Numbered from the stretch's first letter, positions 10,451-34,946 are shown. The stretch: 64,000 nt of DNA from a virus (IMGVR_UViG_3300047564_002155:64001-128000), one strand, 5' to 3'. Program-made: numbers and translations. The notes: a model not told the origin generated them from the sequence alone.

Positions 10451-10465
10451 TTTTTGGAGTAAAAA

Positions 10466-12958: not shown

Positions 12959-12967
12959 TATTTATTC

Positions 12968-12985
12968 TTGATATCAAAAAAGTTT
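12968..12985. repeat. 18-bp direct repeat, copy 1 (TTGATATCAAAAAAGTTT)
   Basis: Identical to 14047-14064 and contains the palindrome TTGATATCAA. Confidence 0.85.
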
Positions 12986-13018
12986 CGTTAATGCATTAAC
13001 AAAAATGGAGAACTAAAA

Positions 13019-14044: not shown

Positions 14045-14046
14045 TA

Positions 14047-14064
14047 TTGATATCAAAAAAGTTT
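14047..14064. repeat. 18-bp direct repeat, copy 2
   Basis: Identical to 12968-12985. Confidence 0.85.
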
Positions 14065-14070
14065 TGATTT

Positions 14071-14238
14071 ATGGCAAAAAACGATTCTCCAAAAGAAGTG
14101 GAACTCAAGCTCTCAACACGAGAGCTTGAGGCCCTTCTAATCGGATTGGGTGAGGTTCCCTTTAAAGGTAAAGACATTGAGTTTGTCTACCGACTCGCAG
14201 TCAAACTTCAAGAAGGAATCCTAAAGTCAAAATCCTAA
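14071..14238 (+). CDS. Small hypothetical protein (55 aa, not in the ORF track), possibly a fibre chaperone
   Basis: MAKNDSPKEVELKLSTRELEALLIGLGEVPFKGKDIEFVYRLAVKLQEGILKSKS*, followed by a terminator. Confidence 0.65.
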   Translation: MAKNDSPKEVELKLSTRELEALLIGLGEVPFKGKDIEFVYRLAVKLQEGILKSKS

Positions 14239-14242
14239 AAAG

Positions 14243-14268
14243 AAACCCTCCCAAGTGGAGGGTTTTTT
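14243..14268 (+). terminator. Rho-independent terminator
   Basis: aaaccctcc-caagt-ggagggttt followed by Ts. Confidence 0.85.
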
Positions 14269-14313
14269 ATTTGATATCTATCTATTTATTTAAGATTATA
14301 ATCATAAAAATCT

Positions 14314-14360
14314 TGGTTGTTGGCCCGAAAGGGAAGTGGGCACGAAAGTGTTACCAACCA
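14314..14360 (+). ncRNA. Putative structured cis-regulatory RNA (three-way junction with two GAAA tetraloops)
   Basis: A gttgg/ccaac stem encloses ccc-GAAA-ggg and ggcac-GAAA-gtgtt. This is a GC-rich island in an AT-rich 5' UTR. Confidence 0.55.
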
Positions 14361-14377
14361 CAATAAAGGATGGGGAT

Positions 14378-16540
14378 ATGCCAAACTGGAAAAAAGTCGT
14401 AGTTAGTGGGAGTAATGTCTCACAACTTTTAAATGATGGTGTTTATTTAAGAACCACGGGTGATGGGGTTATTTCATCATCAGCTCAAATTGCGGGTGAA
14501 ATTAGTGGTGCGTTTACTGCAACATCCGCTTCTTTAAGTGGTAGAATTGATAATTTAAGTTCATCATCTACTGTGTTTGCAAGTACGGGTTCAAACACTT
14601 TCAACGGAGACCAAACTTTTAGTGGTTCTTTATTACCCGACACGACTGAAGTATTTAGTTTAGGTTCGCCTGACAAAGTATGGGAAAGTCTTTATGTAGA
14701 TGGGCAATCCATTTATATGAGAGATACTGCAACAAACACATTTGTTACAATGTCGGCTAATTCAGGTGTCCTTACCTTTAACAACACAAGATTAAATGTT
14801 CCACTTGGAATTACATCATCCAATTTAATACTAACTTCGGTAGTTAATGCTGGAACAAATACAGGTAAATTTCTTGTATTAGACTCTAATGGTAATGTAG
14901 ATTTTAGAACTGAAGTAGAGGTTCGCTCTGATATTGGTGCTCAAAGTTTATCTGCTGGTACATTATCTTCATCCGCACAAATCCAAGCATATGACATTTT
15001 CTTGGAAAAATTGGGTGATAATGTTATTTCATCATCAGCTCAATTAACAACCGAATTTGACACAAGATATCTAAATACAAGTGGTGATGGTGTAATATCA
15101 TCATCCGCTCAAGTTGACCACGATTCAACAACTAACTTTGTAGCAAACGAACACATAGACCACACCACAGTATCTATTTCAGCTGGTAGTGGTTTAAGTG
15201 GTGGTGGAACTATTGCTAGTACACGAACTTTAGCATTAGACACTTCATCTGCTCACTTTACGGATGGTGTAAAAACAAAATTAAATACTGAAGGTGTTAT
15301 TTCATCATCTGCTCAATTAACAGGTACTTTTGATACCCGTTACCTAAACACCACCGGTGATAATGTATTATCTTCATCAGCTCAAATTGCAGGTGAAATT
15401 AGTGGTGCTTTCACCGCTGCATCAGGTGGTTTCTCAACAAGAATTACTTCATTAGAAGCTGCAGGTGGAACTACATTCTCATCTTCGGTTTCTACAAGAT
15501 TAACAAATGTTGAAGGTTACACTCTTGATAATGTAACTGATAATGGTTCATCAACTACCAATGGGATTACAATTGGTGGTTTGACGGTGAATGGTAATGC
15601 TACAATTACAGGTACACTTACCGCACAACAATTTAATACTGAATTTGTATCTTCATCAATTATTTTTGAGTCCGGCTCAACAAAATTTGGTGACTCCGTA
15701 GATGATATTCATTCATTCACAGGTTCAGTAAAGTTAAATACCCAAACTGCTGCTACAACGGATACTGATAAGTTCTTGGTGTTTGATACCGGTGGTGAAA
15801 TTAAATATAGAACTGGTGCAGAAGTTTTAAGTGATATAAATCCTGGTGGTTTAATCTCATCATCTGCTCAACTTACAACCGAGTTTGATACTCGTTACCT
15901 AAATACAACAGGCGATGGAGTTATTTCATCATCAGCCCAATTAACATCCACTTTTGATACCCGTTACTTAAACACCACCGGTGATAATGTATTATCTTCA
16001 TCAGCTCAAATTGCAAGTGAAATTAGTGGTGCTTTTACTGGCGCTGGGTTTGTTGATGTTGGTAGTGCTGCGAGTGCGTCAAGGTTAGCTGTATGGCAAG
16101 ACGGAAACACTATCAGAGGGTATGAGAATATTACAATACACAATAATTCGGTAATTGAGGCTGGTTTATATTTAAGTGGCGGTTCATCCGGAATTGGTCG
16201 TAAAGTATTGCATGGTTCTGGTGGTGGTACTGGTGCTGGACAATTTTCAATATTAAATTGTGGAAACCCGGCGGATTCAATCGGAGCGCATGTTTCATAC
16301 ACAGTGCATGTCTACGGAAATAGAAATGCCGGCTTTAAAGCCGGAACTATTTTAGCAGTGTGGGATACTTCGGGTGGTAATATTCAATATTACGAAACCT
16401 CTACAAGCACATATGGTACATTACCAACCCACCAAGTTTATCCTTTTTTGACTGGAGGGTCTGTATATATTGTTTTAGCAAATAATAGTGGAACCTCATT
16501 GTATGTAACCGCTAACGCTGATATAATGACAACAATATAA
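14378..16540 (+). CDS. Tail fibre-like protein (SSSAQ family)
   Basis: The ATG at 14378 (MPNWKKVVVSGS) follows AGGA. It has FDTRYLNTTGDxVISSSAQ repeats and a distinct C-terminal tip domain. Confidence 0.65.
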   Translation: MPNWKKVVVSGSNVSQLLNDGVYLRTTGDGVISSSAQIAGEISGAFTATSASLSGRIDNLSSSSTVFASTGSNTFNGDQTFSGSLLPDTTEVFSLGSPDKVWESLYVDGQSIYMRDTATNTFVTMSANSGVLTFNNTRLNVPLGITSSNLILTSVVNAGTNTGKFLVLDSNGNVDFRTEVEVRSDIGAQSLSAGTLSSSAQIQAYDIFLEKLGDNVISSSAQLTTEFDTRYLNTSGDGVISSSAQVDHDSTTNFVANEHIDHTTVSISAGSGLSGGGTIASTRTLALDTSSAHFTDGVKTKLNTEGVISSSAQLTGTFDTRYLNTTGDNVLSSSAQIAGEISGAFTAASGGFSTRITSLEAAGGTTFSSSVSTRLTNVEGYTLDNVTDNGSSTTNGITIGGLTVNGNATITGTLTAQQFNTEFVSSSIIFESGSTKFGDSVDDIHSFTGSVKLNTQTAATTDTDKFLVFDTGGEIKYRTGAEVLSDINPGGLISSSAQLTTEFDTRYLNTTGDGVISSSAQLTSTFDTRYLNTTGDNVLSSSAQIASEISGAFTGAGFVDVGSAASASRLAVWQDGNTIRGYENITIHNNSVIEAGLYLSGGSSGIGRKVLHGSGGGTGAGQFSILNCGNPADSIGAHVSYTVHVYGNRNAGFKAGTILAVWDTSGGNIQYYETSTSTYGTLPTHQVYPFLTGGSVYIVLANNSGTSLYVTANADIMTTI

Positions 16541-16584
16541 TAATTAAACAATCTGTTTGGAAAGTGAAAAACGGAAGGAACTAA

Positions 16585-17199
16585 ATGGCAAACGAATTTA
16601 TAATTAAAAATGGACTGATTATTCAAGGTGGTGGTGGACTACAAATGTCCGGCTCACTTGGAATTACTGGTTCATTAAACATATCAAGTGTAGTAAACGC
16701 AGGAACTGATACTGATAAGTTCTTGGTATTGGACTCTAATGGTAATGTAGATTTTAGAACAGGTACCGAAGTTCTTTCCGACATTGGTGCAGCCGCATCA
16801 TCCGTAAAAAACTATATAGATTTTAATAATGTAGTTGATTTTAAAACAATTGCTGATGGATACGCACCAATGTGTGGTATTACGGATATCCAAACAAGTG
16901 TAAATTCACCATTTGCACATTGGATTGCACCTTCGGATGGTTATATTGAACGAATTGAAGTAATGGTGGGTGAAACTAATACGGTGACTGATACTTTTTC
17001 AATTCAACCATATAAAAATGGTTCTGTATTGGGGTCATCGGTAGGTAATACACTGGGTGCTGTGAGAACTGTAACTGAATATGTGTTTAGCGCAACATAC
17101 TCATTCTCAAAAAGAGATAAAATTCAGTTTTATATGTCCAAAGGAACCAATACATCAGATTTGTATACATTCAATGTTTACTTCTTCGCTACAACCTAA
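16585..17199 (+). CDS. Virion fibre-associated protein
   Basis: Starts [10 protein letters not shown] and shares the [18 protein letters not shown] module with the upstream gene. Confidence 0.55.
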
Positions 17200-17219: not shown

Positions 17220-20200
17220 ATGAGTTTGATACACGCATTACACGAAGATACTTTGTTAGAGGTTAATGGAATACTAACCCCTATCAAGGATATCCAAATT
17301 GGCGATGTAGTAAAAAGTTACAATACTGAAGCCCAAACTATCGGTGAAAGTAAGGTTGTTTCTAAACACATCGGTTTTGATAGTGAATACTACCACATAA
17401 ATTTTAGTGATGGTTCACAATTAAAAACATCCATCAAATCACTTTTCTATTCACAAGATGGTGAATGGTTAACTCCTTTAGATGTATACCACTTAAAAAA
17501 ATCACTCCTTAACGGATTAGAAATCACCTCACTAAAATTAGTTGATGGTGATATTTCTTTTATTAGTATTGAAGTAGAACCCGACCACAACTATTTTGTA
17601 GGTAATCTATTAGTACACAACACAGGTCCTACGGGTCCTACGGGTCCTACTGGAGCTCAAGGTCCTAAAGGTCCCACCGGCTCTACCGGTTCAACGGGCC
17701 CTACCGGCGGTACTGGTCCTCAAGGTCCTATTGGCCCTAAAGGTCCAACCGGACCCGCTTCATCACCTCAAGGTGCTCAAGGTCCAAAAGGTCCTATGGG
17801 TAACTCACCACAAGGTCCAACGGGTCCTACTGGCCCAACAGGTCCTACCGGCCCAACTGGTCCTACTGGAGCTCAAGGTCCCAAAGGACCAACGGGTCCA
17901 ACTGGTCCTACTGGTCCACAAGGTCCAACAGGTCCAACGGGACCAACCGGCCCTACGGGGTCTTCACCACAAGGTCCTGCTGGTCCAAAGGGACCTACGG
18001 GTCCTACTGGCGCAACTGGCCCAACGGGTCCTACTGGTCCTACTGGCGCTAAAGGACCACAAGGTCCTACGGGTCCAACCGGTGGCACGGGTCCAAAAGG
18101 ACCACAAGGTCCTACGGGTCCAACAGGTCCAACAGGTCCTACTGGCCCTACTGGTGCAAAAGGACCACAAGGTCCTACTGGCCCACAAGGTAACCAAGGG
18201 CCAGTTGGCCCATCACCTCAAGGAGCTCAAGGTCCTAATGGACCAACAGGTCCAACCGGCCCTAAAGGACCAACGGGACCAACAGGCCCCACTGGTGCAA
18301 AAGGTCCACAAGGAGGAACAGGTCCTACTGGCCCAACCGGTGGTCAAGGTGCTACTGGCGCTCAAGGTTTCCAAGGACCAACCGGTCCTACCGGACCTAC
18401 TGGCGCAAAGGGTCCACAAGGACCCACTGGTCCACAAGGTAACCAAGGTCCTTCAGGTTCTTCACCCCAAGGTGCTCAAGGTCCAAAAGGACCAACCGGT
18501 CCAACTGGCGCTCAAGGTCCTGTTGGACCAACGGGTCCTACTGGACCAAAAGGACCTCAAGGTCCCACAGGTCCCACAGGCCCAACAGGAAACCAAGGTC
18601 CGATTGGACCAAAGGGTCCGCAGGGGCCAACGGGTGGAACTGGCCCTCAAGGTGGAGTAGGTCCTCAAGGTCCAAAGGGCGACCAAGGTAATTCACCACA
18701 AGGTGCACAAGGTCCGATAGGACCACAAGGAGCTAAAGGACCTGCGGGTTCTTCACCTAAAGGAGACCAAGGTCCACAAGGTGCTCAAGGTCCTAAAGGT
18801 CCCCAAGGAGCTAACCCACAAGGAGACCAAGGACCACAAGGTCCACAAGGTCCTAAAGGACCAACCGGGTCTTCACCTCAAGGAGCTCAAGGTCCTAAAG
18901 GACCACAAGGTCCACAAGGTAACCAAGGACCCGCACCTCAAGGTGACCAAGGTCCTAAAGGCCCACAAGGTCCACAAGGTAATCAAGGACCCGCACCTCA
19001 AGGTGACCAAGGTCCTAAAGGTCCACAAGGTCCACAAGGACAACAAGGACCTGCGCCACAAGGTGACCAAGGTCCTAAAGGTCCACAAGGTGCTCAAGGT
19101 CCGATGGGTAATTCACCTCAAGGACCACAAGGTGCAAAAGGACCACAAGGTGATAAAGGTAATACGGGCTCTTCGCCCAAAGGTGACCAAGGACCACAAG
19201 GCGCTCAAGGTCCTAAAGGTCCTCAAGGAGCTAACCCACAAGGTGACCAAGGACCACAAGGTCCACAAGGTCCTAAAGGTCCTACTGGCTCTTCACCGCA
19301 AGGTGCTCAAGGTCCTAAAGGTCCACAAGGTCCACAAGGTCAACAAGGACCCGCACCTCAAGGTGACCAAGGTCCTAAAGGCCCACAAGGTCCACAAGGT
19401 AATCAAGGACCCGCACCTCAAGGTGACCAAGGTCCTAAAGGACCACAAGGACCACAAGGACAACAAGGTCCAGCGCCTCAAGGTGACCAAGGTCCTAAAG
19501 GTCCACAAGGGCCAAAGGGTGACCAAGGTAATTCACCTCAAGGTGCTCAAGGTCCAACAGGTGCTCAAGGTGATAAAGGTAATACAGGGTCTTCACCTAA
19601 AGGAGACCAAGGTCCACAAGGTGCTCAAGGTCCTAAAGGCCCTCAAGGAGCTAACCCACAAGGTGACCAAGGTCCACAAGGCCCACAAGGTCCTAAAGGT
19701 CCTACTGGGTCTTCACCACAAGGCGCTCAAGGTCCTAAAGGTCCTCAAGGTGATAAAGGTCCAACTGGGTCTTCACCGCAAGGTGCTCAAGGTCCTAAAG
19801 GACCACAAGGTCCACAAGGTAACCAAGGTCCTGCTCCTCAAGGTGACCAAGGTCCTAAAGGTCCTCAAGGCGCTCAAGGTAATCAAGGACCGCAAGGTCC
19901 AATTGGACCTCAAGGTCCTAAAGGCCCTCAAGGTCCTAAAGGTCCTCAAGGAGACAAGGGTCCTCAAGGAGCTGCTCCTCAAGGTGACCAAGGTCCACAG
20001 GGACCAAAGGGTGACCAAGGTAATTCACCTCAAGGCGCTCAAGGTCCTAAAGGTCCTCAAGGAGACAAAGGACCACAGGGTGCGGCACCTCAAGGTGCTC
20101 AAGGTCCTAAAGGTCCACAGGGGGATAAAGGACCACAAGGTTCAATAGGTAACCAAGGAGACCAAGGTCCACAAGGTCCGCAAGGACCAAAGGGTGATGC

Positions 20201-21311
20201 TGGAACCTCACCACAAGGTGCTCAAGGTCCTAAAGGTCCTCAAGGAGACAAAGGTCCTCAAGGAGCTTCACCACAAGGAGCTCAAGGTCCACAAGGTGTT
20301 AAAGGACCACAAGGTCCTAAAGGAACTTCACCTCAAGGTGACCAAGGTCCACAAGGTGCTCAAGGTCCTAAAGGTCCTCAAGGTGATTCACCACAAGGAG
20401 ACCAAGGACCACAAGGTCCTAAAGGAGACCAAGGTAATTCACCTCAAGGTGCTCAAGGTCCTATTGGGGCTCAAGGTCCTAAAGGTCCTCAAGGAGACAA
20501 AGGTCCTCAAGGTGCAAAAGGTCCTCAAGGAGACAAAGGTCCTCAAGGAGACAAGGGTCCTCAAGGAGCTAATCCACAAGGTGACCAAGGTCCACAAGGT
20601 GAAAAAGGACCACAGGGGGATAAGGGAACCTCACCACAAGGTGCTCAAGGTCCTAAAGGTCCTCAAGGAGACAAAGGTCCTCAAGGAGCTTCACCACAAG
20701 GAGCGCAAGGCCCACAAGGTGTTAAAGGACCACAAGGTCCTAAAGGAACTTCACCTCAAGGTGACCAAGGTCCACAAGGTGCTCAAGGTCCTAAAGGTCC
20801 TCAAGGTGATTCACCACAAGGAGACCAAGGACCACAAGGTCCTAAAGGAGACCAAGGTAATTCACCTCAAGGTGCTCAAGGTCCTATTGGGGCTCAAGGT
20901 CCTAAAGGTCCTCAAGGAGACAAAGGTCCTCAAGGTGCAAAAGGTCCTCAAGGAGACAAAGGTCCTCAAGGAGACAAGGGTCCTCAAGGAGCTAATCCAC
21001 AAGGTGACCAAGGTCCTCAAGGACCACAAGGTGCTCAAGGTCCTAAAGGAACGTCACCACAAGGTCCACAAGGAGCTAAAGGTCCTCAAGGTCCTAAAGG
21101 AACTTCACCTCAAGGTGCTCAAGGACCACAAGGTCCTCAAGGAGACAAAGGTCCTCAAGGAGACAAAGGTCAAAAGGGAGAGGCTGCTCTTGGAACTTTA
21201 ATTAGTGGTGTATCACCAGGATTAACTTGGAACGGGTCTCGTGGATTTTTAAGTTTCAATAATGGTGGTGCTACATATGTAATTCATATGTATGTAAGTG
21301 GTTCATTCTAA
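17220..21311 (+). CDS. Collagen-like protein 1 with N-terminal Hint (intein-like) domain
   Basis: Residues 6-134 (ALHEDTLL...[11 protein letters not shown]...[17 protein letters not shown]) are followed by about 1190 aa of Gly-X-Y and a short C-terminal domain ending YVSGSF. Confidence 0.9.
18740..21020 (+). repeat. Higher-order tandem duplications in collagen 1 (60-, 420- and 423-bp periods)
   Basis: Blocks recur at 18751, 19171 and 19591 (420 bp) and at 20202 and 20625 (423 bp). 60-bp units occur at 18901, 18961 and 19021. Confidence 0.85.
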
Positions 21312-21334
21312 TCCAAAAATAAAGAAGTTCTCTT

Positions 21335-24300
21335 ATGAGTGTTAAAAACGGACAATTAGTCAGATTATATGATGGAAGTGAAACCGCTATTGAAAATCTC
21401 ATTAGTGGTTCTTCCATTGTAGCTGGTGTTGCTTTACCTGGACTTGGATTGGGTGAAACTGATTATAAAACTTGGTCTTCTACTGATATATCATCCACGA
21501 CATTACAACCCGCAAATGTTGTAACAAGAAATACTTTCATCAATTCAGCTATTGAAAAAATTGAATTTAACGATGGTAATCTTGTCGTATCACCAATGCA
21601 AGAAATCCTTGTAAAAGGTGGTGATAATGTATATCTTTTTAAAAGAGCAAAAGATGTAGTCTTAAATTCAGACCATTTAGTAAAATGGAATGGTTCTTCA
21701 CTTGTAGATGAACTAATTACTGAAGCTTATACCATAGACCCGGAAGACGCTTCAAACCTAAACATTGAAGACCTTGATGTTTACCTTGTAAATGGGTATG
21801 TAGTTCACAACGCAGGGACTTCTTATTTTACATCAGATTGTTTAACTTCAGATAATCTTGGTTGTGGTAACTGGCCTAATTTTGATCCTGGCTCATACTC
21901 CAACACTTGTTATTATGTATCGGGTGCTCCTGGAACTGATTGTGCTTATACTTGTGCCACTTGTGAAGAGATTGAATTTGATGCAAACTCCGATGGTGAA
22001 CCTTGTGGTTCTAATAATGAGTGTGACGCAGATACATCACAAGGTCCAACAGGTCCAACAGGTCCTCAAGGTGCAGTCGGTCCTAAAGGTGATAATGGGC
22101 CAACTGGTGGAACGGGCCCGACCGGTCCTCAAGGTGCTGTGGGTCCAATCGGCCCTACGGGTGATACTCCTGACGCACTAACGGGTCCTCAAGGTCCCGT
22201 AGGTCCAAAAGGACCATCGGGTAATTTGGGACCACAAGGTCCCACGGGACCAACAGGTCCAACGGGTGGACAAGGTGGGCAAGGTTCTCAAGGTGCTGTG
22301 GGGCCTGTGGGAGATTCTCCAACCGGAGGACAAGGTAACCAAGGACCTGTTGGTCCTACTGGCCCAACGGGGCCCGCAGGAGCATTAGGTCCGGTAGGAC
22401 CTATCGGACCAACCGGCGACCAAGGACCCACCGGACCAACCGGCCCAACGGGCGCTTCACCCACTGGCCCAGGTGGTGACCAAGGTCCAACGGGCGGAAC
22501 GGGTCCAACCGGTCCTGGTGGAGACCAAGGTCCAACAGGCCCAACAGGTGCAACGGGTGCTTCACCCACTGGTGGTGGTGGTGACCAAGGTCCTGTGGGA
22601 CCTCAAGGGCCAAAAGGACCTTCGGGTAATTTAGGAGCTCAAGGACCTGTTGGCCCAACCGGCCCAACTGGTCCTGTTGGACCTACTGGCGATACAGGTG
22701 CCTCACCAACCGGTCCAGGCGGTGACCAAGGACCCACCGGCCCTACGGGTCCTACGGGCCCCACTGGCGATAGAGGTCCACAAGGTCCTATGGGACCAAC
22801 GGGTGCTTCCCCAACAGGTGGTGGTGGAGACCAAGGACCAACAGGCGCTCAAGGACCTGTTGGTGGAACTCCAGGTCCTGGTGCAGCGGGTCCAATAGGA
22901 CCAGGTGGCGACCAAGGTTCACAAGGTCCTCAAGGTCCAATTGGGGCTTCCCCAACAGGTGGTGGTGGAGACCAAGGACCTCAAGGAGGTCAAGGTTCGC
23001 AAGGACCTACTGGAGATATTGGTGTTGGTGGCGACCAAGGTCCAACTGGCGGACAAGGTAATCAAGGTCCACAAGGATTACAAGGTCCAAAAGGACCTTC
23101 GGGTAATTTAGGTCCTCAAGGACCAATAGGACCTACCGGAGCTGGTGGACCTGCTGGGGATAATGCTCCTAAAGGCGCTCAAGGAGACCAAGGAAATACA
23201 GGTCCTATTGGACCCACCGGTGATGCTGGCCCCAAAGGAGCTCAAGGTGCTCAAGGAAATCAAGGAAATCAAGGTCCAACTGGTGATGCTGCTTTAACAG
23301 GTCCTCAAGGACCAATTGGAGGTGGGGGTGACCAAGGTCCTCAAGGACCTGCAGGAGCAAAAGGTGCTCAAGGTCCAGTTGGTGGTCAAGGAGACCAAGG
23401 CCCTCAAGGACCCGCTGGTCCTAAAGGTGCTCAAGGACCAATTGGAGGTGGAGGTAACCAAGGTCCTCAAGGACCTGCTGGCGGTAAGGGTGCTCAAGGT
23501 CCAATTGGCGGTCAAGGAGACCAAGGTCCTATGGGACCTTCGGGTAATTTAGGCGCTCAAGGACCAATGGGTCCTAAAGGTGACCAAGGTCCAACTGGTG
23601 ATGCAGCCCCAAAAGGTGCTCAAGGAGACCAAGGAAATACAGGTCCTATTGGACCCACCGGTGATGCTGGCCCCAAAGGAGCTCAAGGTGCTCAAGGAAA
23701 TCAAGGTAACCAAGGTCCAACAGGTGATGCTGCTTTAACAGGTCCTCAAGGACCTGTGGGTGTGAAGGGTGACCAAGGTCCTCAAGGACCTGCTGGAGGT
23801 AAAGGCTCTCAAGGTCCTATTGGTGGACAAGGAGACCAAGGTCCTCAAGGGCCTGCTGGGGCTAAAGGTGCCCAAGGTCCAACAGGCGCTGGTGGTGACC
23901 AAGGTCCTCAAGGACCTGCTGGTGGTAAAGGTGCTCAAGGTCCTATTGGTGGGCAAGGCGACCAAGGTCCTAAAGGACCATCGGGTAATTTAGGCCCCCA
24001 AGGTCCAACGGGTGTAAAAGGTAATCAAGGTCCAACCGGCGATGCTGCTGCTAAAGGTGCTCAAGGGGACCAAGGAAATACAGGTCCTATTGGTCCAACT
24101 GGCGATGCTGGTCCTAAAGGTGCTCAAGGTGCTCAAGGTAACCAAGGTAACCAAGGACCAACCGGCGATGCTGCATTAACAGGCGCTCAAGGTCCTATGG
24201 GACCTAAAGGTGACCAGGGTCCAGTGGGTACACCCGCCGAAACCGGGGCTCAAGGTCCTGTTGGCGTAAAAGGTGACCAAGGTCCTCAAGGGCCTGCTGG

Positions 24301-25918
24301 GGCTAAAGGTGCTCAAGGACCTGTTGGTGGACAAGGTGACCAAGGTCCTCAAGGACCACAAAGTGTAGCTACCGAAGGTGGTGATGGATATACTGGTGGA
24401 CCACAAGGTGCTGTTGGTCCAACGGGTGACCAAGGACCTAAAGGTGATGTGGGTCAAAAAGGTGATGATGGTCCTAAAGGGGCTCAAGGTCCTCAAGGAT
24501 TACAAGGTCCTAAAGGTCCTTCGGGAAATTTAGGAGCTCAAGGTCCTGTTGGTGTAAAGGGTGATACTGGTCAAAAAGGTGATGATGGTCCTAAAGGAGA
24601 CCAAGGACCAACTGGTGTTAAGGGAGACCAAGGACCTGCAGGAGAACAAGGACCTAAAGGACCTCAAGGAGCTCAAGGTAATCAGGGTAGACAAGGACCA
24701 ACCGGAGATGCTGCTCTAACAGGCGCTGCTGGTCCAATTGGACCCAAAGGTGACCAAGGTCAAAAAGGTGATGATGGTCCTAAAGGCGCTCAAGGTCCTC
24801 AAGGTAGAGTAGGCCCGCAAGGAGACCAAGGTGATGCTTTTGACGCTTTAACACCACAAGGACCTCAAGGAAATATAGGACCTGTTGGAGTTAAAGGTGA
24901 TGCTGGTCCTAAAGGCGCTCAAGGTCCTCAAGGACTTCAAGGTCAAAAAGGACCATCTGGAAACACGGGCGCTCAAGGACCTCAAGGACCACAAAGTGAT
25001 AAGGGTTCTACGATTGGACCTAAAGGGGACCAAGGATTTTCAGGCGATTATGAAGACACTGCGCCTAAAGGTGACCAAGGTCAAAAGGGTGACCAGGGTC
25101 AAAAGGGGGCTGATGGTCCAAAGGGTGCTCAAGGGGCTCAAGGATTTCAAGGTCCCAAAGGTGACCAAGGACCCACCAATTTAACAGGCCCACAAGGTGC
25201 TGTTGGTGTAAAAGGTGATGTTGGTGTAAAAGGTGATGATGGTCCTAAAGGCGCTCAAGGTCCTCAAGGTAGAGTAGGTCCGCAAGGTGACCAAGGTGAT
25301 GCTTTTGACGCTTTAACCCCACAAGGACCTCAAGGAAATGTAGGACCTGTTGGAGTTAAAGGTGATGCTGGTCCCAAAGGAGCTCAAGGTCCTCAAGGAT
25401 TACAAGGTCCAAAAGGACCGTCTGGAAACGCCGGTGCTCAAGGACCTCAAGGACCACAAAGTGATAAGGGTTCTACCATCGGTCCTAAAGGAGACCAAGG
25501 ATTTTCAGGCGATTATGAAGACACTGCACCCAAAGGCGATGTTGGACCTCAAGGTGACCAAGGTCAAAAGGGGGCTGATGGTCCTAAAGGAGCTCAAGGT
25601 GCCGCGGGAAATCAAGGACCACAAGGTGGCCAAGGAACATCCGCATTATCGGGCGCTGAAGGTGCTGTTGGACCACAAGGTGAACAAGGACCAACGGGAG
25701 ATTCTCCAACTGCTGAACAAAATGGACCACAAGGAGCACAAGGTATAGCTCCGGGTCCTAAAGGTGATTTTGGTCAAAAAGGTGAAAAGGGAAGTCAACT
25801 TGAAGGTGGTTACTTTGAGTGGAGTGATACTGATAATAAACTATACTTTAAAGAGTATGGTTGGACTGCCGGTGATAGATTATTTGTTGTAGAATTATAC
25901 AGGTCAGGTTCATTTTAA
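21335..25918 (+). CDS. Collagen-like protein 2 with N-terminal Hint domain and Cys-rich linker
   Basis: Residues 2-159 ([21 protein letters not shown]...[14 protein letters not shown]) are followed by an 8-Cys segment, a long Gly-X-Y region and a C-terminus ending YRSGSF. Confidence 0.9.
23080..25600 (+). repeat. Higher-order tandem duplications in collagen 2 (441- and 465-bp periods)
   Basis: Blocks recur at 23171, 23612 and 24053 (441 bp) and at 24781 and 25246 (465 bp). Confidence 0.85.
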
Positions 25919-25932
25919 TACATTCAATTCCA

Positions 25933-25940
25933 TATTTATA
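25933..25940 (+). promoter_or_regulatory. Putative phage late promoter TATTTAT(A/T), representative copy
   Basis: The same motif occurs at about 3129, 3447, 7038, 14283, 29602, 32175, 32509, 34918, 35503, 36888 and 46717, each shortly before a gene start. Confidence 0.7.
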
Positions 25941-25966
25941 ATAAAGTTTAAAAAATAAGTTTTGTT

Positions 25967-26572
25967 ATGGAAAAGAAATTTATATTCAATCAAGACCCAT
26001 CACGATTTTCAGCTGACCATACCAATTATTATTGGTTTCAAAATGGATTTACTGCTGAAGAATTGGCTACGATTGAACAAATGACTTCCAATTTACCATT
26101 TGAAGCCGCGGGCGTTGGTGAGTTGGATAAATCACGAGTAGAAAGCGAATATCGTAAATCATCAATTAAATGGTGTCCTCAAAACGAAGAGTGGGAATGG
26201 GTTTACGATAAGCTTGGAACTATGATTTCTGAAGCAAACAACAATATGTGGAAATTTGATTTGACTCATATGAGAGAACAAATCCAATATACTGAATACT
26301 ACGAAGGTGGTGGTCAGTATGACTGGCATATGGATTGTGGTATTGGTATTCAAGCCCAACGCAAAGTTTCGGTTACTGTTCAATTATCACAACCTGATGA
26401 ATACGAGGGTGGTGATTTACAATTTATGTTAGGTGCTGGTCAGATTTGGGCTCCACGAGTTCAAGGGGCTGCTGTTATTTTCCCATCATTTTTCTTACAC
26501 CGAGTTACGCCTGTAACCAAGGGGACTCGTAAGTCATTTGTTCTTTGGGTTGGTGGAGAACCATATAGATAA
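25967..26572 (+). CDS. 2OG-Fe(II) oxygenase (prolyl hydroxylase/PKHD-like)
   Basis: HxD (WHMD), RKVSVTVQLS..EYEGGDL, and HRVTPVTKGTRKS with the distal His and Arg. Confidence 0.9.
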   Translation: MEKKFIFNQDPSRFSADHTNYYWFQNGFTAEELATIEQMTSNLPFEAAGVGELDKSRVESEYRKSSIKWCPQNEEWEWVYDKLGTMISEANNNMWKFDLTHMREQIQYTEYYEGGGQYDWHMDCGIGIQAQRKVSVTVQLSQPDEYEGGDLQFMLGAGQIWAPRVQGAAVIFPSFFLHRVTPVTKGTRKSFVLWVGGEPYR

Positions 26573-26575
26573 TCT

Positions 26576-27874
26576 ATGAGAAAAACTAAATTACCATCTG
26601 CATTAGTTTATGGGTGGGATAAGTTTGGTGAATTCTCCATCCCATCTACACTATCAGAACACGAAGGACTTGTAGAAGATGTAGTGATTTTCTCTTGCGA
26701 AGACCATTTTAATTTTTATGTTGATTTTTCAAAATATCAGCCAGATGTAATTATTACATTTGGTGATAAAAATCAATATGAATCTATTTTAGAAGCTTCT
26801 GATGAAAACCTTGTAAATACAAAGTGGACTCACATTGATGAAATTTTAAGTGATGAGGAGCTTGCAAATAAAGTAGATGAATTGTCTACCTATTGGAGTT
26901 GTGGTTCAAATCAAAATGTTTTTGGTTCTAAAGACCTACCATTCTTTTCAGCATTTACCGGAACTTACAAAACCGGTGATAGAATTTTCAGAACCTATAA
27001 TGGTCTAAAAAATCAAACTTATAAAAATTGGGAATGGGTTGTTATTGATGACTCGCCTGAAGATGATTTTGATACTTGGAATAAACTACAAGAAATCGCA
27101 TCCCGAGACCATAGAGTAAAAATTCATAGAATTACACCAAATACGGGCGGTAATGTTGGTGAGGTTAAACACCGAGCTGCTATGTTATGTAATGGTGATT
27201 GGTTATTGGAGTATGACCATGATGATGTGATTGCATCAACATACTTTGAAGAGTGTGTCAAAGCATCAAAGCAATATCCTGATGCTGGATTTATTTTTAC
27301 CGGATGTGCTGAACTTTACGAAGATGGTAAACACAAACAATATGGTCCAATTGACCCAACGGGTTATGGTAGATATGGTTTTAATAACTACACTTGGGCT
27401 TATTCGTGGCACGAATGGGTGGAAATTGATGGTAAAAAATATATTGGAGGATTTGCTCCAAGTATAAATCCAAAAACTATTAGATATAATATGGGTATGC
27501 CAAATCACGCACGAATGTGGCATAGAGATGTGTATCATAAAGTCAGAGGTCACAATAGATATATTTCCGTAGCAGATGATTTTGAACTGATTGTAAAAAC
27601 ATTCCTAACAACACGAATGTTAAAAATTGATAAAATCCTATATATGCAATGGAATAATTATTCAAGCACTGTTGATATGAACTTAACTGATATTAATAGA
27701 AGAGCACGAATAATTAGAAATTACTATGATAAAGCTATTCACGAGCGAATCCTTGAACTTGGAAAAGAAGATTGGGATTGGGATGAAGAAACTCAAAAAT
27801 GCCATCACGCTTGGTGGATAGATAGAAGTAGATATTTTGAAAAAGAACAAGTTTTAAATTACACGATAAAATAA
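26576..27874 (+). CDS. Glycosyltransferase family 2 (GT-A)
   Basis: NQTYKNWEWVVIDDS, GDWLLEYDHDD (DxD) and ADDFEL motifs. Confidence 0.88.
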   Translation: MRKTKLPSALVYGWDKFGEFSIPSTLSEHEGLVEDVVIFSCEDHFNFYVDFSKYQPDVIITFGDKNQYESILEASDENLVNTKWTHIDEILSDEELANKVDELSTYWSCGSNQNVFGSKDLPFFSAFTGTYKTGDRIFRTYNGLKNQTYKNWEWVVIDDSPEDDFDTWNKLQEIASRDHRVKIHRITPNTGGNVGEVKHRAAMLCNGDWLLEYDHDDVIASTYFEECVKASKQYPDAGFIFTGCAELYEDGKHKQYGPIDPTGYGRYGFNNYTWAYSWHEWVEIDGKKYIGGFAPSINPKTIRYNMGMPNHARMWHRDVYHKVRGHNRYISVADDFELIVKTFLTTRMLKIDKILYMQWNNYSSTVDMNLTDINRRARIIRNYYDKAIHERILELGKEDWDWDEETQKCHHAWWIDRSRYFEKEQVLNYTIK

Positions 27875-27882
27875 GGAACAAT

Positions 27883-29595
27883 ATGAAAGTTTTGTTTGTA
27901 GTTGGATATCAGAAAACCCCATTTAATCCTTTTGTTTGGATTAAAGAAGGAATTGGTGGTTCTGAATACGCTGTTATAAAATTAGCTCATCAAATGTCAA
28001 AGCAGGGTGATGAGGTTGTTGTCACAGGTCAAGTTGTTCCGTGTGAAGTTGAGGGTATTAAGTATATACCATATGAATCCCTTGGAACAAATCAACATTA
28101 TGATGTTGTAATTGCTACAAATTATATTCACTATATTAATGAACTTGACTCACGAGAAATAACTTTTGACAAATCTTATTTTTGGATTCATAATAATGAA
28201 TATTACGCATATTGGAATGGTCAAATATTAGAGGATTTTGGAAAAGAACATTTACAAAATTCAAGGATGACTAATGTGATTGCAGTATCGGATTACTCCG
28301 CAAAAATACTTGAAGAAAAGTATACTGAAATGGTGGGAAAGGTCAGAGTTATTCCAAACGCTATTGACCCAACTGACTGGAATGGTATCCGATTTGATAA
28401 CAAACGAAAAAACAAATTTGTATATACATCCGCTGCTGATAGAGGTTTAAAAAACCTACTTGAAATCTGGCCGCAGATTCGTGACGCCAGACCCGAAGCG
28501 ACTCTTTGGGTAGCAAGTCCACCATACGCATTAGATTGGTATGAAGACTATAAGGGATTCTATGATGGTGTTCATTTTGTGGATAATCTACCACCAAGAG
28601 AATTATATGAGTTGATTGCTTCATCGGAGTATTGGGTATATCCATCACAATACGATGAAACCTATTGTATTACAGCATTGGAAATGATGATGGGTGAGGT
28701 TTCAATCATAACAACCGATACCGGAAATTTAGCAAGTATCATTCCAGCGCGAGGTGCTGTGGTATCTTCTGAAAGTGATGTTGAAACTTTAAAAAAACAA
28801 ATTTTAGAAAAACTTGAATTTGTAGAATCGGATGCTGCTTTTAGAAAGTTTTCAAAAGAAAATGCTAAATCTTTTGTTCTAAAACAAACTTGGGAAAATG
28901 TAGAAAAAATTTGGAGAAATCTTATGAACGAAACACAACCCAACCGACAAGAACAAACTGATATGTTAGCTTTACATCCTGAATTATATTCTTACAAATA
29001 TGACAAAATTGGATGGTTGGAACGATTTGTAACCTATGATGCGAGAATTAGAGAATGGGATTTGATTTCAGATGAACAATTTGATGGATGTTTTACATTT
29101 CCATTATTTACTGAAGAATTTTGTAAGATGATTCGTGAAGAGGCAGAACATTCAAAAAAATGGACTTACAAAAGACACGAATATTATCCAACCACGGATA
29201 TGCTATTATCTGAATTGGGATTGAATGAAATTTACTATGAAGTTCTCCAAACCTATGTAATGCAATTTATGATTCACAAATTTGGTTTAGAAGGTAGGGG
29301 ATGGGATTCTTTAAATTCTGAAAACTTTTTAGCAAGATACACACCAGACACTCAAGGTCATCTTTCAATACACCACGACTCTTCTGATTTAACTTGTTTA
29401 GTCCAACTATCAGACCTTGATGAATATGAAGGTGGTGGAACTTGGTTTTGGAGACAAAAAAAATTAATAAAAGGTGGAATCGGATATTGTACGGTACATC
29501 CTGGAAATATAACTCACAAGCACGGAGCAAGACCTGTAAGTAAGGGAAGTCGTTATATTATTGTATCGTTTATGAAAAATTTGGAAAGATATTAA
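27883..29595 (+). CDS. Fusion of a GT-B glycosyltransferase and a procollagen lysyl hydroxylase (PLOD)-like 2OG-Fe(II) domain
   Basis: N-terminal GT4-like motifs: GIGGSE, IPNAID, YPSQYDETYCITALE. C-terminal PLOD-like domain: FPLFTEEFC...YPTTD...FLARYTPDTQGHLSIHHDSS...YEGGG...HPGNITHKHG...GSRYIIVSF. Confidence 0.85.
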   Translation: MKVLFVVGYQKTPFNPFVWIKEGIGGSEYAVIKLAHQMSKQGDEVVVTGQVVPCEVEGIKYIPYESLGTNQHYDVVIATNYIHYINELDSREITFDKSYFWIHNNEYYAYWNGQILEDFGKEHLQNSRMTNVIAVSDYSAKILEEKYTEMVGKVRVIPNAIDPTDWNGIRFDNKRKNKFVYTSAADRGLKNLLEIWPQIRDARPEATLWVASPPYALDWYEDYKGFYDGVHFVDNLPPRELYELIASSEYWVYPSQYDETYCITALEMMMGEVSIITTDTGNLASIIPARGAVVSSESDVETLKKQILEKLEFVESDAAFRKFSKENAKSFVLKQTWENVEKIWRNLMNETQPNRQEQTDMLALHPELYSYKYDKIGWLERFVTYDARIREWDLISDEQFDGCFTFPLFTEEFCKMIREEAEHSKKWTYKRHEYYPTTDMLLSELGLNEIYYEVLQTYVMQFMIHKFGLEGRGWDSLNSENFLARYTPDTQGHLSIHHDSSDLTCLVQLSDLDEYEGGGTWFWRQKKLIKGGIGYCTVHPGNITHKHGARPVSKGSRYIIVSFMKNLERY

Positions 29596-29634
29596 CCATA
29601 CTATTTATATATTGAGGTATAAAAAGGAGAGTTA

Positions 29635-30831
29635 ATGGCAATTCAAATTCCAATATGGCCAGGTAGTAGTTCATTTTCTTCAATATCTGCGTCTTTTTAC
29701 ACAGATTCATCCACAACTAAACCAACACCATTTGGTTTTTTTGATAGTGATTCTACGTTTAAGTCAGATGCTGATAATGTAGCCAATTGGTGCGCAAACC
29801 GATTGGGTTATCCCATTGTTGATATTGAATTACAAGATATAAACTTTTTTGCTTGTTTTGAAGAAGCCGCTAACGAATATTCTTCACAAATCAATCAGTA
29901 TAGAGCAAAAGAAAATCTTTTGTCTCTTCAAGGTTCAAGTTTAAACAACACACTTGCTAGTAAGCAACTAAATAGTAATATGCAGGGTGTAGTAAATCTT
30001 GCGAAAGATTACGGAACCGAAGCAAAAAGTGGTGGTAGATTAACACACTATACCGGTTCATTCACTATGGTAGAGGGTCAACAAATCTACAATCTAAATG
30101 ATAGTAGTGTTGTATCACTTGAATCAGGTTCAGTTACAAATGGACTTACCATTCGTAAAGTATTCCACGAAGCACCGCCTGCGATTGTAAGATACTTTGA
30201 CCCATTCGTTGGAACAGGTATGGGTTCTCAACAAATGATGGATACTTTTGGGTGGGGTAACTATTCACCGGGTGTATCATTTTTAATGCAACCAATGTAT
30301 GATGACTTACTTCGTTTACAAGCAATTGAGTTTAACGACCAAATTCGTAAATCTCAATATTCATTTCAATTAGTTAATAATCGTATTAAAATATTCCCAC
30401 TTCCGGTTTCAGGTGATGGTGGTGTAAAAATATACTTTGAATATACATTAGATACTGAAGCAAATAATCCAATTATAGCATCAAATGTGGTTAGTGATTT
30501 TTCTAATGCTCCGTTTGAAAGATTAACATATACTTCAATCAATTCAGCTGGTAGACAATGGATTACCAAGTATACTCTTGCATTAGCTAAAGAAGTTCTT
30601 GGTGCGGTAAGAGCAAAGTTCTCCGCTATTCCAATTCCGGGAGCAGACATCACATTGGATGGTGGTGACCTTCGTAACGAAGCTGCTGCAGAAAAAGAAG
30701 CACTCCTAACTCAATTAAAAGAAATGTTAGAAGCTACATCTAAAAAAGCATTGATGGAAGCCAAACGAGATGAGGCTGAATTCCTTGAGTCTACACTTGC
30801 AAGAATTCCAAGACCAATTTATATAGGATAA
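29635..30831 (+). CDS. Neck protein (gp13-like)
   Basis: RLGYPIVDIEL and WITKYTLALAKEVLG..R.KF..IP.PG..ITLDG motifs. First gene of the neck-tail block. Confidence 0.8.
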   Translation: MAIQIPIWPGSSSFSSISASFYTDSSTTKPTPFGFFDSDSTFKSDADNVANWCANRLGYPIVDIELQDINFFACFEEAANEYSSQINQYRAKENLLSLQGSSLNNTLASKQLNSNMQGVVNLAKDYGTEAKSGGRLTHYTGSFTMVEGQQIYNLNDSSVVSLESGSVTNGLTIRKVFHEAPPAIVRYFDPFVGTGMGSQQMMDTFGWGNYSPGVSFLMQPMYDDLLRLQAIEFNDQIRKSQYSFQLVNNRIKIFPLPVSGDGGVKIYFEYTLDTEANNPIIASNVVSDFSNAPFERLTYTSINSAGRQWITKYTLALAKEVLGAVRAKFSAIPIPGADITLDGGDLRNEAAAEKEALLTQLKEMLEATSKKALMEAKRDEAEFLESTLARIPRPIYIG

Positions 30832-30835
30832 TCCA

Positions 30836-31366
30836 ATGGCGTTATTTGGTGGTCAGAGAGATATGTCTTTGTTTAGAACATTAAACAAGGAACTTATCAA
30901 TGATATTATTGATACTGAAGTTTATTTTTTTAAATTCGCTATAAGTGAAACAAAAAACAATTTATACGGAGAAAGTAAAAATAAACAATATTACAATCCT
31001 GTAAAAATTCCGTGTCTAATAGAGTACAATACCCTTGAACAAATTTCAGATGAGTTTGGTCAGTATTATTCAAGAAATGTTGAATTTAGATTTCTTCGTG
31101 ATACTTTAAAAGATGACAAAGATATACATCCGGATGTGGGTGATATTGTTGAATGGAATCACGAATATTTCCAAATTGATTCGGTAGCAGAATCTCAATT
31201 ATTTGCAGGTAAGAATCCAGATACTTGGGATGGTGGTGAAAGTCAAGGTTATTCAATATCATTTATATGTGCTGCACATATGACACGACAATCTACTATT
31301 AATTTAGTTGATAACCGATTTGGTAATTCTAATAACACAACTAATACAATACCGGTGGGAATTTAA
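30836..31366 (+). CDS. Neck/head-closure protein (gp14-like)
   Basis: NLYGES and PDVGDIV motifs, and synteny. Confidence 0.65.
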   Translation: MALFGGQRDMSLFRTLNKELINDIIDTEVYFFKFAISETKNNLYGESKNKQYYNPVKIPCLIEYNTLEQISDEFGQYYSRNVEFRFLRDTLKDDKDIHPDVGDIVEWNHEYFQIDSVAESQLFAGKNPDTWDGGESQGYSISFICAAHMTRQSTINLVDNRFGNSNNTTNTIPVGI

Positions 31367-32169
31367 TGGCAAATCGTTATAGAGTAGTTGACCCTAATAA
31401 GCCGGACTTGAGACAAACACAAAGTTCTACTCAAGATGACCCTGTATTAAACAAAGCGAACCAGGTTCGTAGAGATACTGATAATGTTAAAAACATTTCA
31501 ATTGGATTATACGATATTGACCTTGCGTTTAAAGATTTTTTGGAAAGAGATGTAAAGCCAATGGTCAATGAAAATGGCCAGTTAGTTCAAGTTCCGGTGA
31601 TGTATGCAAATCCAGAGAAGTGGAAATCTGCCCAACAAGACCTTTTTATGAGGGATGATAATGGAATGATTTTAACACCTGTGATTGTATTTAAAAGAAA
31701 TTCTATGTCTCCAAATACGGATATGGCAAAACTAAAAGTTATAAATGCTGAAGATGCTAATCAGATGTTTGAAAGAACATATACAAGGGACAATAGATAC
31801 GACCAATTTTCAATATTGACAGGTCAAAAACCTTCTAAAGAATACTATGCTGTTGAAAAGCCGGATTATGTAAACGTGGAATATTCTACCATTGTTTGGT
31901 GTGATTACCAAGAGCAAGTAAATAAAATTGTAGAACAAATTGTATTTTTCCAAGGTCGTTCTTTTGGTGATAGATATAAATTTGTAGTAAAGTCAGATTC
32001 TTATCAATTTGAAACTATTGCAGATTTAGGTCAAGATAGAATAACCAAAGCCGAAATTACTCTACAAGTAAAAGCATACCTATTGCCAGAATTCGCTGGA
32101 ATTAAAAACAATACCAGAAAAACATTTTCAGTTGGTAAAATTATATGGAATGAAAGTTACGACCTGTAA
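31366..32169 (+). CDS. Tail terminator/sheath stabiliser (gp15-like)
   Basis: VPVMYANPEKW motif, and position before the sheath gene. Confidence 0.65.
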   Translation: MANRYRVVDPNKPDLRQTQSSTQDDPVLNKANQVRRDTDNVKNISIGLYDIDLAFKDFLERDVKPMVNENGQLVQVPVMYANPEKWKSAQQDLFMRDDNGMILTPVIVFKRNSMSPNTDMAKLKVINAEDANQMFERTYTRDNRYDQFSILTGQKPSKEYYAVEKPDYVNVEYSTIVWCDYQEQVNKIVEQIVFFQGRSFGDRYKFVVKSDSYQFETIADLGQDRITKAEITLQVKAYLLPEFAGIKNNTRKTFSVGKIIWNESYDL

Positions 32170-32203
32170 TTCTATATTTATACTATATTAAAGAGATTTT
32201 ATT

Positions 32204-34903: not shown

Positions 34904-34946
34904 TTTGAAGAATGATATATTTATAAGAAAGATTAGGAGAATTTAA

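Follow-up and report, generated by a model that had tools for sequence, protein, structure and literature searches.

The stretch analysed here, called the window, covers 64,000 nucleotides, bases 64001-128000 of the 168,128-bp IMG/VR phage record IMGVR_UViG_3300047564_002155, whose completeness is estimated at 94%. The source is an uncultured marine T4-like phage; a T4-type structural module is present in the window, with a gp23-like capsid gene and PhoH followed by neck-like genes, sheath and tube. Five open reading frames (ORFs), P0001 to P0005, occupy positions 17220-29595, all on the + strand and all where an earlier note, made from the sequence alone, had placed them. Two of them encode giant collagen-like chains with a predicted Hint domain at the N-terminus; the other three encode a 2-oxoglutarate (2OG)-Fe(II) oxygenase, a GT2 glycosyltransferase, and a fusion of a GT-B glycosyltransferase with a PLOD-type lysyl hydroxylase (LH). 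As judged from homology, residue placement and the comparison of related loci, the block is probably a phage-encoded maturation module for the collagen-like fibres of the phage itself.

The gene content had been read in the same way in the earlier note. The two giant Gly-X-Y genes (1363 and 1527 aa), each with an N-terminal Hint domain, are confirmed by ORF analysis, profiles and relatives; the presence of the three enzymes, directly after the collagens, is confirmed by Pfam and phmmer. The further proposal, that the phage carries its own analogue of the animal collagen pathway, stands in part: it is supported by the LH homology, by the placement of the lysines, by synteny and by the link between LH and collagen lysine, while hydroxylation of proline in the Y position lacks a substrate.

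The C-terminal part of P0005 (28933-29595, +) was assigned to the PLOD-type lysyl hydroxylases on the basis of phmmer and of invariant residues. By Pfam, the whole protein consists of GT-B (GT4) domains, an "OGFOD2-like" region and a 2OG oxygenase. Its N-terminal GT-B domain (27883-28932, +) matches Glyco_trans_1_4 and Glycos_transf_1 at 1.2e-11 and 3.6e-11, above the cut-offs. When P0005 is compared to PDB sequences by plain phmmer, residues 360-564 (205 residues) match human LH3/PLOD3 with an E-value of 3e-26 and mimivirus L230 with 2e-22; in the alignment to LH3, the motifs HHDSS, HPG..TH.H and RYI.VSF, related to Fe(II) and 2OG, line up. Residues H497, D499, H545, H547 and R557, as well as the E-x7-E pair of the GT4 domain (E259, E267), are invariant in 14 homologues (41-66% identity). 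By these sequence features, the C-terminal domain truly belongs to the collagen lysyl hydroxylases, and hydroxylation of the collagens on lysine is predicted with high confidence; glycosylation of the resulting hydroxylysine by the fused glycosyltransferase is also favoured, with distinctly less assurance.

The GT25 domain (PF01755), which defines the family of the animal hydroxylysine galactosyltransferases COLGALT1/2, was not found in P0004 or P0005 by the Pfam scan. It is only present in relatives of P0005 of about 800 aa, composed of GT4, GT25 and LH, where PF01755 scores 1e-17 to 1e-18. That GT25 is repeatedly fused to LH speaks for an action of the glycosyltransferases on hydroxylysine.

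Two known systems may be compared with P0005. With human LH3/PLOD3 and COLGALT1/2, homology of the LH domain extends over about 205 residues, with conserved Fe/2OG residues; the human route leads from Lys to hydroxylysine (Hyl), then to Gal-Hyl and Glc-Gal-Hyl. P0005, in contrast, contains neither GT25 nor the N-terminal GT-A and accessory domains of LH3, and would act in the cytoplasm, not in the endoplasmic reticulum. The glycosyltransferase of mimivirus L230 is of the GT-A type, related to LH3, while that of P0005 is GT-B (GT4); mimivirus infects an amoeba, the window phage a bacterium. The window enzymes, moreover, are directly syntenic with the genes of their putative substrates, and are accompanied by an extra oxygenase, a GT2 and Hint prodomains. 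What the two viral systems share is a single polypeptide joining a glycosyltransferase to a PLOD-type LH, in a virus with collagen-like proteins; L230 is described as a bifunctional collagen lysyl hydroxylase and hydroxylysine glucosyltransferase (LH domain PDB 6ax6; Luther et al. 2011, cited in PMC8968730).

The putative substrates are P0001 (17220-21311, 1363 aa) and P0002 (21335-25918, 1527 aa), which contain 367 and 383 Gly-X-Y triplets respectively, 750 altogether, counting runs of 3 or more; runs reach 34 triplets in each collagen. By triplet count, the Gly-X-Y region of collagen 1 extends, from Thr135, over 17622-21179 (+), and that of collagen 2 over 22043-25792 (+). Lysine is exclusively found in the Y position: the Y:X ratio is 77:0 in collagen 1 and 52:0 in collagen 2, for a total of 129 G-X-K-G sites. 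X-Lys-Gly is the motif recognised by lysyl hydroxylases, as established for the animal enzymes; the lysines of both collagens are therefore placed where such enzymes act. Proline has the opposite preference, with X:Y ratios of 217:0 and 170:2. The same pattern is seen in about 50 homologous collagen ORFs, which have close to 0% Lys in X, 0-5% Pro in Y and 1-62% Pro in X.

Related loci were collected by IMG/VR searches with P0005, Hint 1, the P0003 family (OG201) and P0004, for a total of more than 200; co-occurrence was counted in the best 80 P0003-family loci. A collagen ORF is in reach in 79 of these 80, and LH is present in 72. Conserved synteny, which the earlier note had indicated as a check, is thus found, and the occurrence of the enzymes independently of collagen genes in related phages, which it had regarded as contrary evidence, is seen in at most one of these loci for the P0003 family. 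Loci L173-L177, considered as examples of GT2 and OG201 without collagen, were rejected as such: a collagen of 1323-1706 aa is located 6-7 kb upstream. In the clade of the window (contigs of 166-180 kb), the gene order is capsid, PhoH, four to five large unnamed ORFs, Hint-collagen 1, Hint-collagen 2, OG201, GT2 (when present), GT-B/LH, neck, sheath and tube. In syntenic contigs the enzymes are 46-99% identical to those of the window, and the module is found in dozens of IMG/VR phage contigs; an assembly artefact is excluded by the recurrence of the block in numerous independent contigs. A distant phage group keeps the collagen, OG201 and the GT4+GT25+LH fusion of about 800 aa, beside the sheath gene. 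Collagens of this distant clade (L031:585-7922, L024:1-2994, L028:3-1115) reach 2446 aa, consist mostly of G-T-S and G-S-S triplets and have a non-Hint N-terminus.

The presence of LH is correlated with the lysine content of the neighbouring collagens. In six distinct loci GT2 is directly followed by the neck gene, with no LH, and the collagens feature 0-2% Lys in Y; in 29 distinct LH-bearing entries, Lys in Y ranges from 4 to 46%. One of the LH-less loci, L093, comes from a phage closely related to that of the window (94% identity for the neck, 81% for Hint 2), yet has neither LH nor collagen lysine. In Microcystis phage Mel-JY01, both LH and P0003 are absent, and the collagen is Lys-free. 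LH-less relatives with Lys-free collagens connect enzyme and substrate in an unusually direct and testable manner. As a separate observation, the Lys-free collagens of L093 (1-5302) and L095 (2-1228) contain Phe, Tyr and Leu in X up to 10-23%, which is odd for a triple helix.

P0003 (25967-26572, +) is a standalone 2OG-Fe(II) oxygenase, as indicated by Pfam, fold model and invariant residues: it matches 2OG-FeII_Oxy_3 at 1.6e-14, and has four invariant residues (H121, D123, H178, R188). With a mean column identity of 71%, no protein of the module is better conserved. Its structural model (pLDDT 82) is nearest to Pseudomonas PPHD (4iw3, TM 0.73), HIF PHD2 and an algal prolyl 4-hydroxylase with (Ser-Pro)5, pointing to a prolyl-hydroxylase-like fold, which does not by itself tell the substrate. 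By sequence, the best matches (1e-10) are to hydroxylases of the PKHD type; the NCBIfam match is sub-threshold, and P0003 also matches phrog_61, labelled 2OG-Fe(II) oxygenase, in the auxiliary-gene category. P0004 (26576-27874, +) is, by Pfam, a glycosyltransferase of the GT2 family (GT-A), matching at 6e-13, whose core spans aa 122-253; it is facultative in the module.

Different roles were considered for these two proteins. Canonical prolyl 4-hydroxylation by P0003 is ruled out: Pro in Y is the target of collagen prolyl 4-hydroxylases, and is found in 0 of 367 and 2 of 383 triplets. A second lysyl hydroxylase, for P0003, and a hydroxylysine-dependent activity, for GT2, were both rejected as a general case, as both proteins persist in loci with Lys-free collagens. 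Persistence of OG201 and GT2 in the absence of both LH and collagen lysine indicates, rather, a separate, lysine-independent pair. Its target may tentatively be sought, in sequence terms, in the X-position prolines or in the G-x-S-P-x-G interruptions of the triplet pattern; in collagen 1, all 42 interruptions fit the motif G-x-[S/A/N]-P-x-G. As a universal target of P0003, G-x-S-P-x-G is not supported, because the motif is missing in L051 and in the distant clade. Threonine is frequent in Y (66 residues in collagen 1, 57 in collagen 2) and G-P-T triplets are abundant, a feature shared with the BclA-type exosporium collagens of Bacillus, which are also found in a prokaryotic context and are served by dedicated glycosyltransferases. 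BclA collagens carry O-glycosylated Thr in their GPT repeats, no lysyl hydroxylase being involved. By this analogy, GT2 might possibly glycosylate the Thr residues of the phage collagens.

Both collagens begin with a predicted Hint domain. Hint domain 1 (17220-17621, +; P0001 aa 1-134) scores 25.5 bits against Pfam PT-HINT, slightly below the 27.7 cut-off; the profile built from 12 homologues matches the solved Hint domains 6y75 (6e-8), cyanophage-like gp41-1 intein 6qaz (6e-7) and BIL 2lwy (7e-6). Hint domain 2 (21335-21811, +; P0002 aa 1-159) has no Pfam match, and none was found by a PDB sequence search with the Hint 2 profile; the link to Hint 1 is weak (hhalign probability 15%). The same profile retrieves 308 relatives from 1.84 billion proteins searched: in those sampled, Pfam labels the matched region as Intein_splicing, PT-HINT or Hint_2, often at the extreme C-terminus. 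By this transitive homology between sequences, Hint 2 is classified as a divergent Hint domain.

Intein features are unequally preserved in the two domains. Hint 1 has neither the position-1 nucleophile nor the Thr-x-x-His of block B: position 1, the Cys1 site, lies only 5 residues from the start and is Gly or Ala in 12 out of 12 sequences, and block B reads T-S-[IV]-[KD], the His being absent. The C-terminal features (blocks F/G, His-Asn, +1 nucleophile) are all present in Hint 1, and only partly in Hint 2, where the +1 residue is variable. In Hint 1, blocks F/G, D122-H123 and H133-N134|T135 are invariant among homologues at 45-50% identity, and the terminal His133-Asn134 is immediately followed by Thr135 and by the first Gly-Pro-Thr of the collagen. 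Hint 2 begins at residue 2 (Ser, Ala or Gly), and its His158-Asn159 is invariant. According to established intein chemistry, Asn cyclisation cuts the bond after the terminal Asn; that both domains keep only the residues for this step suggests a design for C-terminal cleavage only. Cleavage sites predicted at N134|T135 and N159|A160 fit the anatomy of the two domains, in accord with the mature N-termini, T135 and A160, proposed in the earlier note. Self-removal by cyclisation of the terminal Asn appears reasonably likely for collagen 1; for collagen 2 its chances are put slightly below even.

Mini-inteins and A-type BIL domains (6qaz; C. thermocellum 2lwy) have in common with Hint 1 the fold, blocks F/G and the terminal His-Asn, which in those proteins cleaves the downstream peptide bond via succinimide formation. 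The phage domain differs in lacking Cys/Ser1, the block B His and, essentially, an N-extein, so that neither splicing nor N-terminal cleavage should be possible, and in its location at the extreme N-terminus of a structural fibre. It is closer to engineered C-terminal-cleaving intein tags than to any known natural class. Collagens of the distant clade have no Hint domain, and carry instead a C-terminal Peptidase_S74 self-cleaving chaperone (1.3e-13), which suggests that a removable assembly domain is the common theme. The Peptidase_S74 chaperones (PF13884) of tail spikes and fibres similarly are self-cleaving terminal domains of trimeric phage fibres; they differ in being C-terminal, in their Ser-Lys chemistry and in their unrelated fold, and are not found on the window collagens.

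Collagen 2 features a Cys-rich linker (21812-22042, +; P0002 aa 160-236), with 10 Cys in 77 residues, which separates the predicted cleavage site of Hint 2 from the first Gly-X-Y triplet. Some Hint 1 homologues (L053, L059, L060) contain a Cys-rich insert, of the C-x-C-x-x-C-x-C type, within the Hint domain itself. Linker and inserts could act as disulfide or metal staples.

At the other end, both collagens terminate with a conserved non-collagen domain of about 40 residues, ending in ...SGS[FY]. In collagen 1 it measures about 43 aa, ends with SGSF and spans, with the stop codon, 21180-21311 (+); in collagen 2 it measures about 41 aa, with the same ending, and spans, again with the stop codon, 25793-25918 (+). 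When modelled in three copies, the C-terminus of collagen 2 forms an intertwined trimer with a score of 0.60, the best of 3 controls scoring 0.00; in a benchmark, 20 out of 30 proteins with a solved structure as homodimers came up to this mark, as did 1 out of 23 with a single-chain structure. Between runs, at least 83% of the contacts coincide, and the partner has a pLDDT of 59 or more; the confident contacts are in the non-collagen part; collagen-like packing in the model may be remembered from solved structures. The model supports trimerisation through this domain, short of showing it.

The earlier note had also mentioned a late-type promoter before the enzymes. The motif ATATTTATA occurs nine times in the window (3488-48677), always on the coding strand (9 out of 9). 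The sites include 25932-25940 (+), 29601-29609, 32174-32182 and 34917-34925. The first of these lies 34 nt 5' of the P0003 start, and copies are also found 29-33 nt 5' of the neck, U92 and tube starts, which makes four sites at 29-34 nt from a gene start. Neither collagen gene is preceded by it. On the coding strand ATATTTATA is the reverse complement of the T4 late consensus TATAAATA; the consensus itself was looked for on the coding strand and is not present. The claim is thus supported by the association with structural genes, and fails as to identity with the T4 consensus. ATATTTATA may serve as a late promoter in this phage group and, being common to enzymes and structural genes, makes the former appear transcribed with the latter. 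Scans for sigma-70 promoters and for terminators gave results at chance level.

These elements may be combined into the following route. The two giant chains would be made late, alongside the other structural genes. While they are still unfolded, the PLOD-type domain of P0005 would hydroxylate the Y-position lysines of the 129 G-X-K-G sites, using Fe2+, 2-oxoglutarate and O2, and the fused GT4 domain would then add a sugar to the new hydroxyl. P0003 and GT2 would act as a second, lysine-independent pair of hydroxylase and glycosyltransferase. The C-terminal domain of about 40 residues would align three chains in register and nucleate the triple helix, and Hint, as a self-cleaving prodomain, would leave by cyclising its terminal Asn (N134|T135, N159|A160). 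The fullest version of this scheme seems rather doubtful: a complete, self-contained phage "procollagen" pathway in the bacterial cytoplasm, where protease-free Hint removal, lysine hydroxylation with GT-B glycosylation, decoration of proline in G-x-S-P-x-G by P0003 and GT2 as in plant and algal hydroxyproline (Hyp)-glycoproteins, and a C-terminal helix-nucleating knob would all take part.

A number of observations speak against a dedicated collagen module. Lysine in Y, when followed by Gly-Asp or Gly-Glu, also stabilises Hyp-free bacterial collagens through salt bridges, so that its restriction to Y does not by itself prove hydroxylation. The association of LH with collagen lysine is perfect, but on the short OG201 tree LH labels change 4 times in the best topology, and well-supported branches force only 1 change, so that the independent co-changes number from 1 to 4. 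In bacteria, homologues of the GT-B/LH fusion (41-45% identity) occur on their own, no collagen being present within 10 kb, which indicates that the enzyme is not restricted to a collagen context; these are the genes L062:10001-11662 and L063:10001-11635 (a 3.5 Mb contig; a Chromatiales bacterium from Bugula neritina). The standalone bacterial genes also fit the reading of the enzymes as auxiliary genes, acting on host envelope glycans or proteins, or on other virion proteins, and adjoining the collagens only because they share a hypervariable region. In line with it, homologues are annotated by their sources as "glycosyltransferase involved in cell wall biosynthesis", collagen is mostly absent near the more distant GT2 relatives, and, in marine myophages, glycosyltransferases located in hypervariable regions have been interpreted as modifying the host surface (PMC7029224). 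The LH domain, however, belongs specifically to the collagen lysyl hydroxylase family, and its presence follows collagen lysine content even among close relatives; the order collagen, OG201, LH fusion is kept over three divergent arrangements, GT25 fusions included, and the enzymes share the promoter-like motif with structural genes. A role of this kind, away from the collagens, is considered improbable. As a side observation, in four loci (L189, L194, L195, L221) a GT2 relative with 34% identity is followed, some 3.3 kb downstream, by an LH-like gene (48% identity) separate from it, with neither a GT-B domain nor a collagen within the locus (e.g. L189:5302-7164 and 10509-11879).

Similar doubts may be raised for single components of the proposed module. 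P0003 might hydroxylate some other protein or a small molecule: its closest solved relatives are of the PiuC/YbiX type and EF-Tu prolyl hydroxylases, its best sequence matches are PKHD-type, with phrog_61 providing an auxiliary-gene label only, and 2OG oxygenases are many in marine myophages. The window collagens have practically no proline in Y, and those of some carriers are very poor in it: in L113 and L115 there is almost none in X or Y. On the other side, P0003 surpasses the rest of the module in conservation, its family adjoins a collagen gene in all but one of the 80 loci, the apparently collagen-less loci having a giant collagen 6-7 kb upstream, and it is absent from Mel-JY01; a substrate other than collagen is regarded as less likely than not. 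The Hint domains, in turn, could be inactive, as they lack the position-1 nucleophile (Gly, Ala or Ser being found there) and the block B His; in Hint 2 the +1 residue varies (A, V, P, F, K), being sometimes a proline, and the AF2 model, obtained from 7 sequences, has a pLDDT of 52, too poor for a fold search. They would then be degenerate, non-cleaving folds, kept as permanent parts of the fibre, e.g. for virion attachment or as its distal end. This is also judged less probable than self-removal, given that neither family shows any change in the block F Asp-His, the penultimate His and the terminal Asn, despite divergence of the remaining domain to about 45-50% identity, that the His-Asn motif of collagen 1 directly abuts the first Gly-X-Y, and that Hint-less relatives carry another self-cleaving domain, Peptidase_S74.

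Hydroxylysine and its glycosides are, to our knowledge, regarded as hallmarks of animal collagens, mimivirus being the sole proven viral exception. A literature search found no paper on a phage PLOD-type enzyme, on hydroxylysine in phage fibres or on Hint-capped collagens, in agreement with the earlier statement that the arrangement had not been described in a phage. The nearest precedents are mimivirus L230 and the bacterial operons of hydroxylases and collagen-like proteins predicted by Iyer et al., which involve other dioxygenase families (PMC2938197). To these the window would add, by sequence, the joining of GT-B and LH, a further hydroxylase/glycosyltransferase pair that does not depend on lysine, N-terminal Hint prodomains suited to cleavage only, one on each substrate, and the contrast provided by LH-less relatives.

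If lysine hydroxylation by the module is true, hydroxylysine chemistry moves into bacteriophages and into the bacterial cytoplasm, with a bearing on the origin of collagen-modifying enzymes. Were the complete pathway true, heavily glycosylated collagen fibres would be common in abundant marine myophages, and "animal" collagen chemistry would have its origin, or a reservoir, in the phage and bacterial world. The suggested fibre glycans might have an influence on host recognition, on stability or on stickiness in seawater. In practical terms, the proteins are compact and can be expected to express in bacteria, and are thus candidates for making recombinant collagen with hydroxylation and glycosylation in E. 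coli; the Hint domains would represent natural counterparts of engineered C-terminal-cleaving intein tags.

The block was said to lie between fibre and neck genes. The neck side is confirmed: neck-like genes (398 aa, 176 aa and a gp15-like one of 267 aa) occupy 29635-32169 (+), with a phrog_211 match at 1e-12 for the neck-like and a sub-threshold match for the gp15-like product, and are followed by sheath and tube. The fibre side is plausible; no family match was found in Pfam or PHROG for the five large upstream ORFs at 7085-17199 (1121, 830, 341, 734 and 204 aa). These ORFs only have internal repeat segments in common with one another, and are kept 5' of the collagens in related contigs; for one of them, U734, the protein atlas gives unnamed viral clusters and weak tail-fibre or baseplate leads only. 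They are probably fibre or baseplate-periphery proteins.

Near-identical DNA was sought among deposited phages, and none was found. The closest deposited record is that of Mel-JY01, with a sheath 58% identical and a neck homologue 49% identical. There, PhoH is directly followed by the neck homologue, and the window ORFs at 7085-29595, the five upstream ones included, have no counterpart at that site; the absence of the whole block, of about 22.5 kb, shows that it is variable within the phage group.

Finally, both collagen genes contain tandem duplications (420 and 423 bp in collagen 1, 441 and 465 bp in collagen 2, at 18659-21091 and 23081-25599), with 83-94% identity. Both genes were recently expanded in this way, which accounts for the large spread in length among homologues (about 940 to 1990 aa). 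Long alternative-frame ORFs are also present inside the collagen genes, at 17731-18660, 18781-20148 and 20194-21201 on the + strand and at 24176-24496 on the - strand; most likely they are not genes, and are by-products of a repetitive, stop-poor Gly/Pro codon composition.

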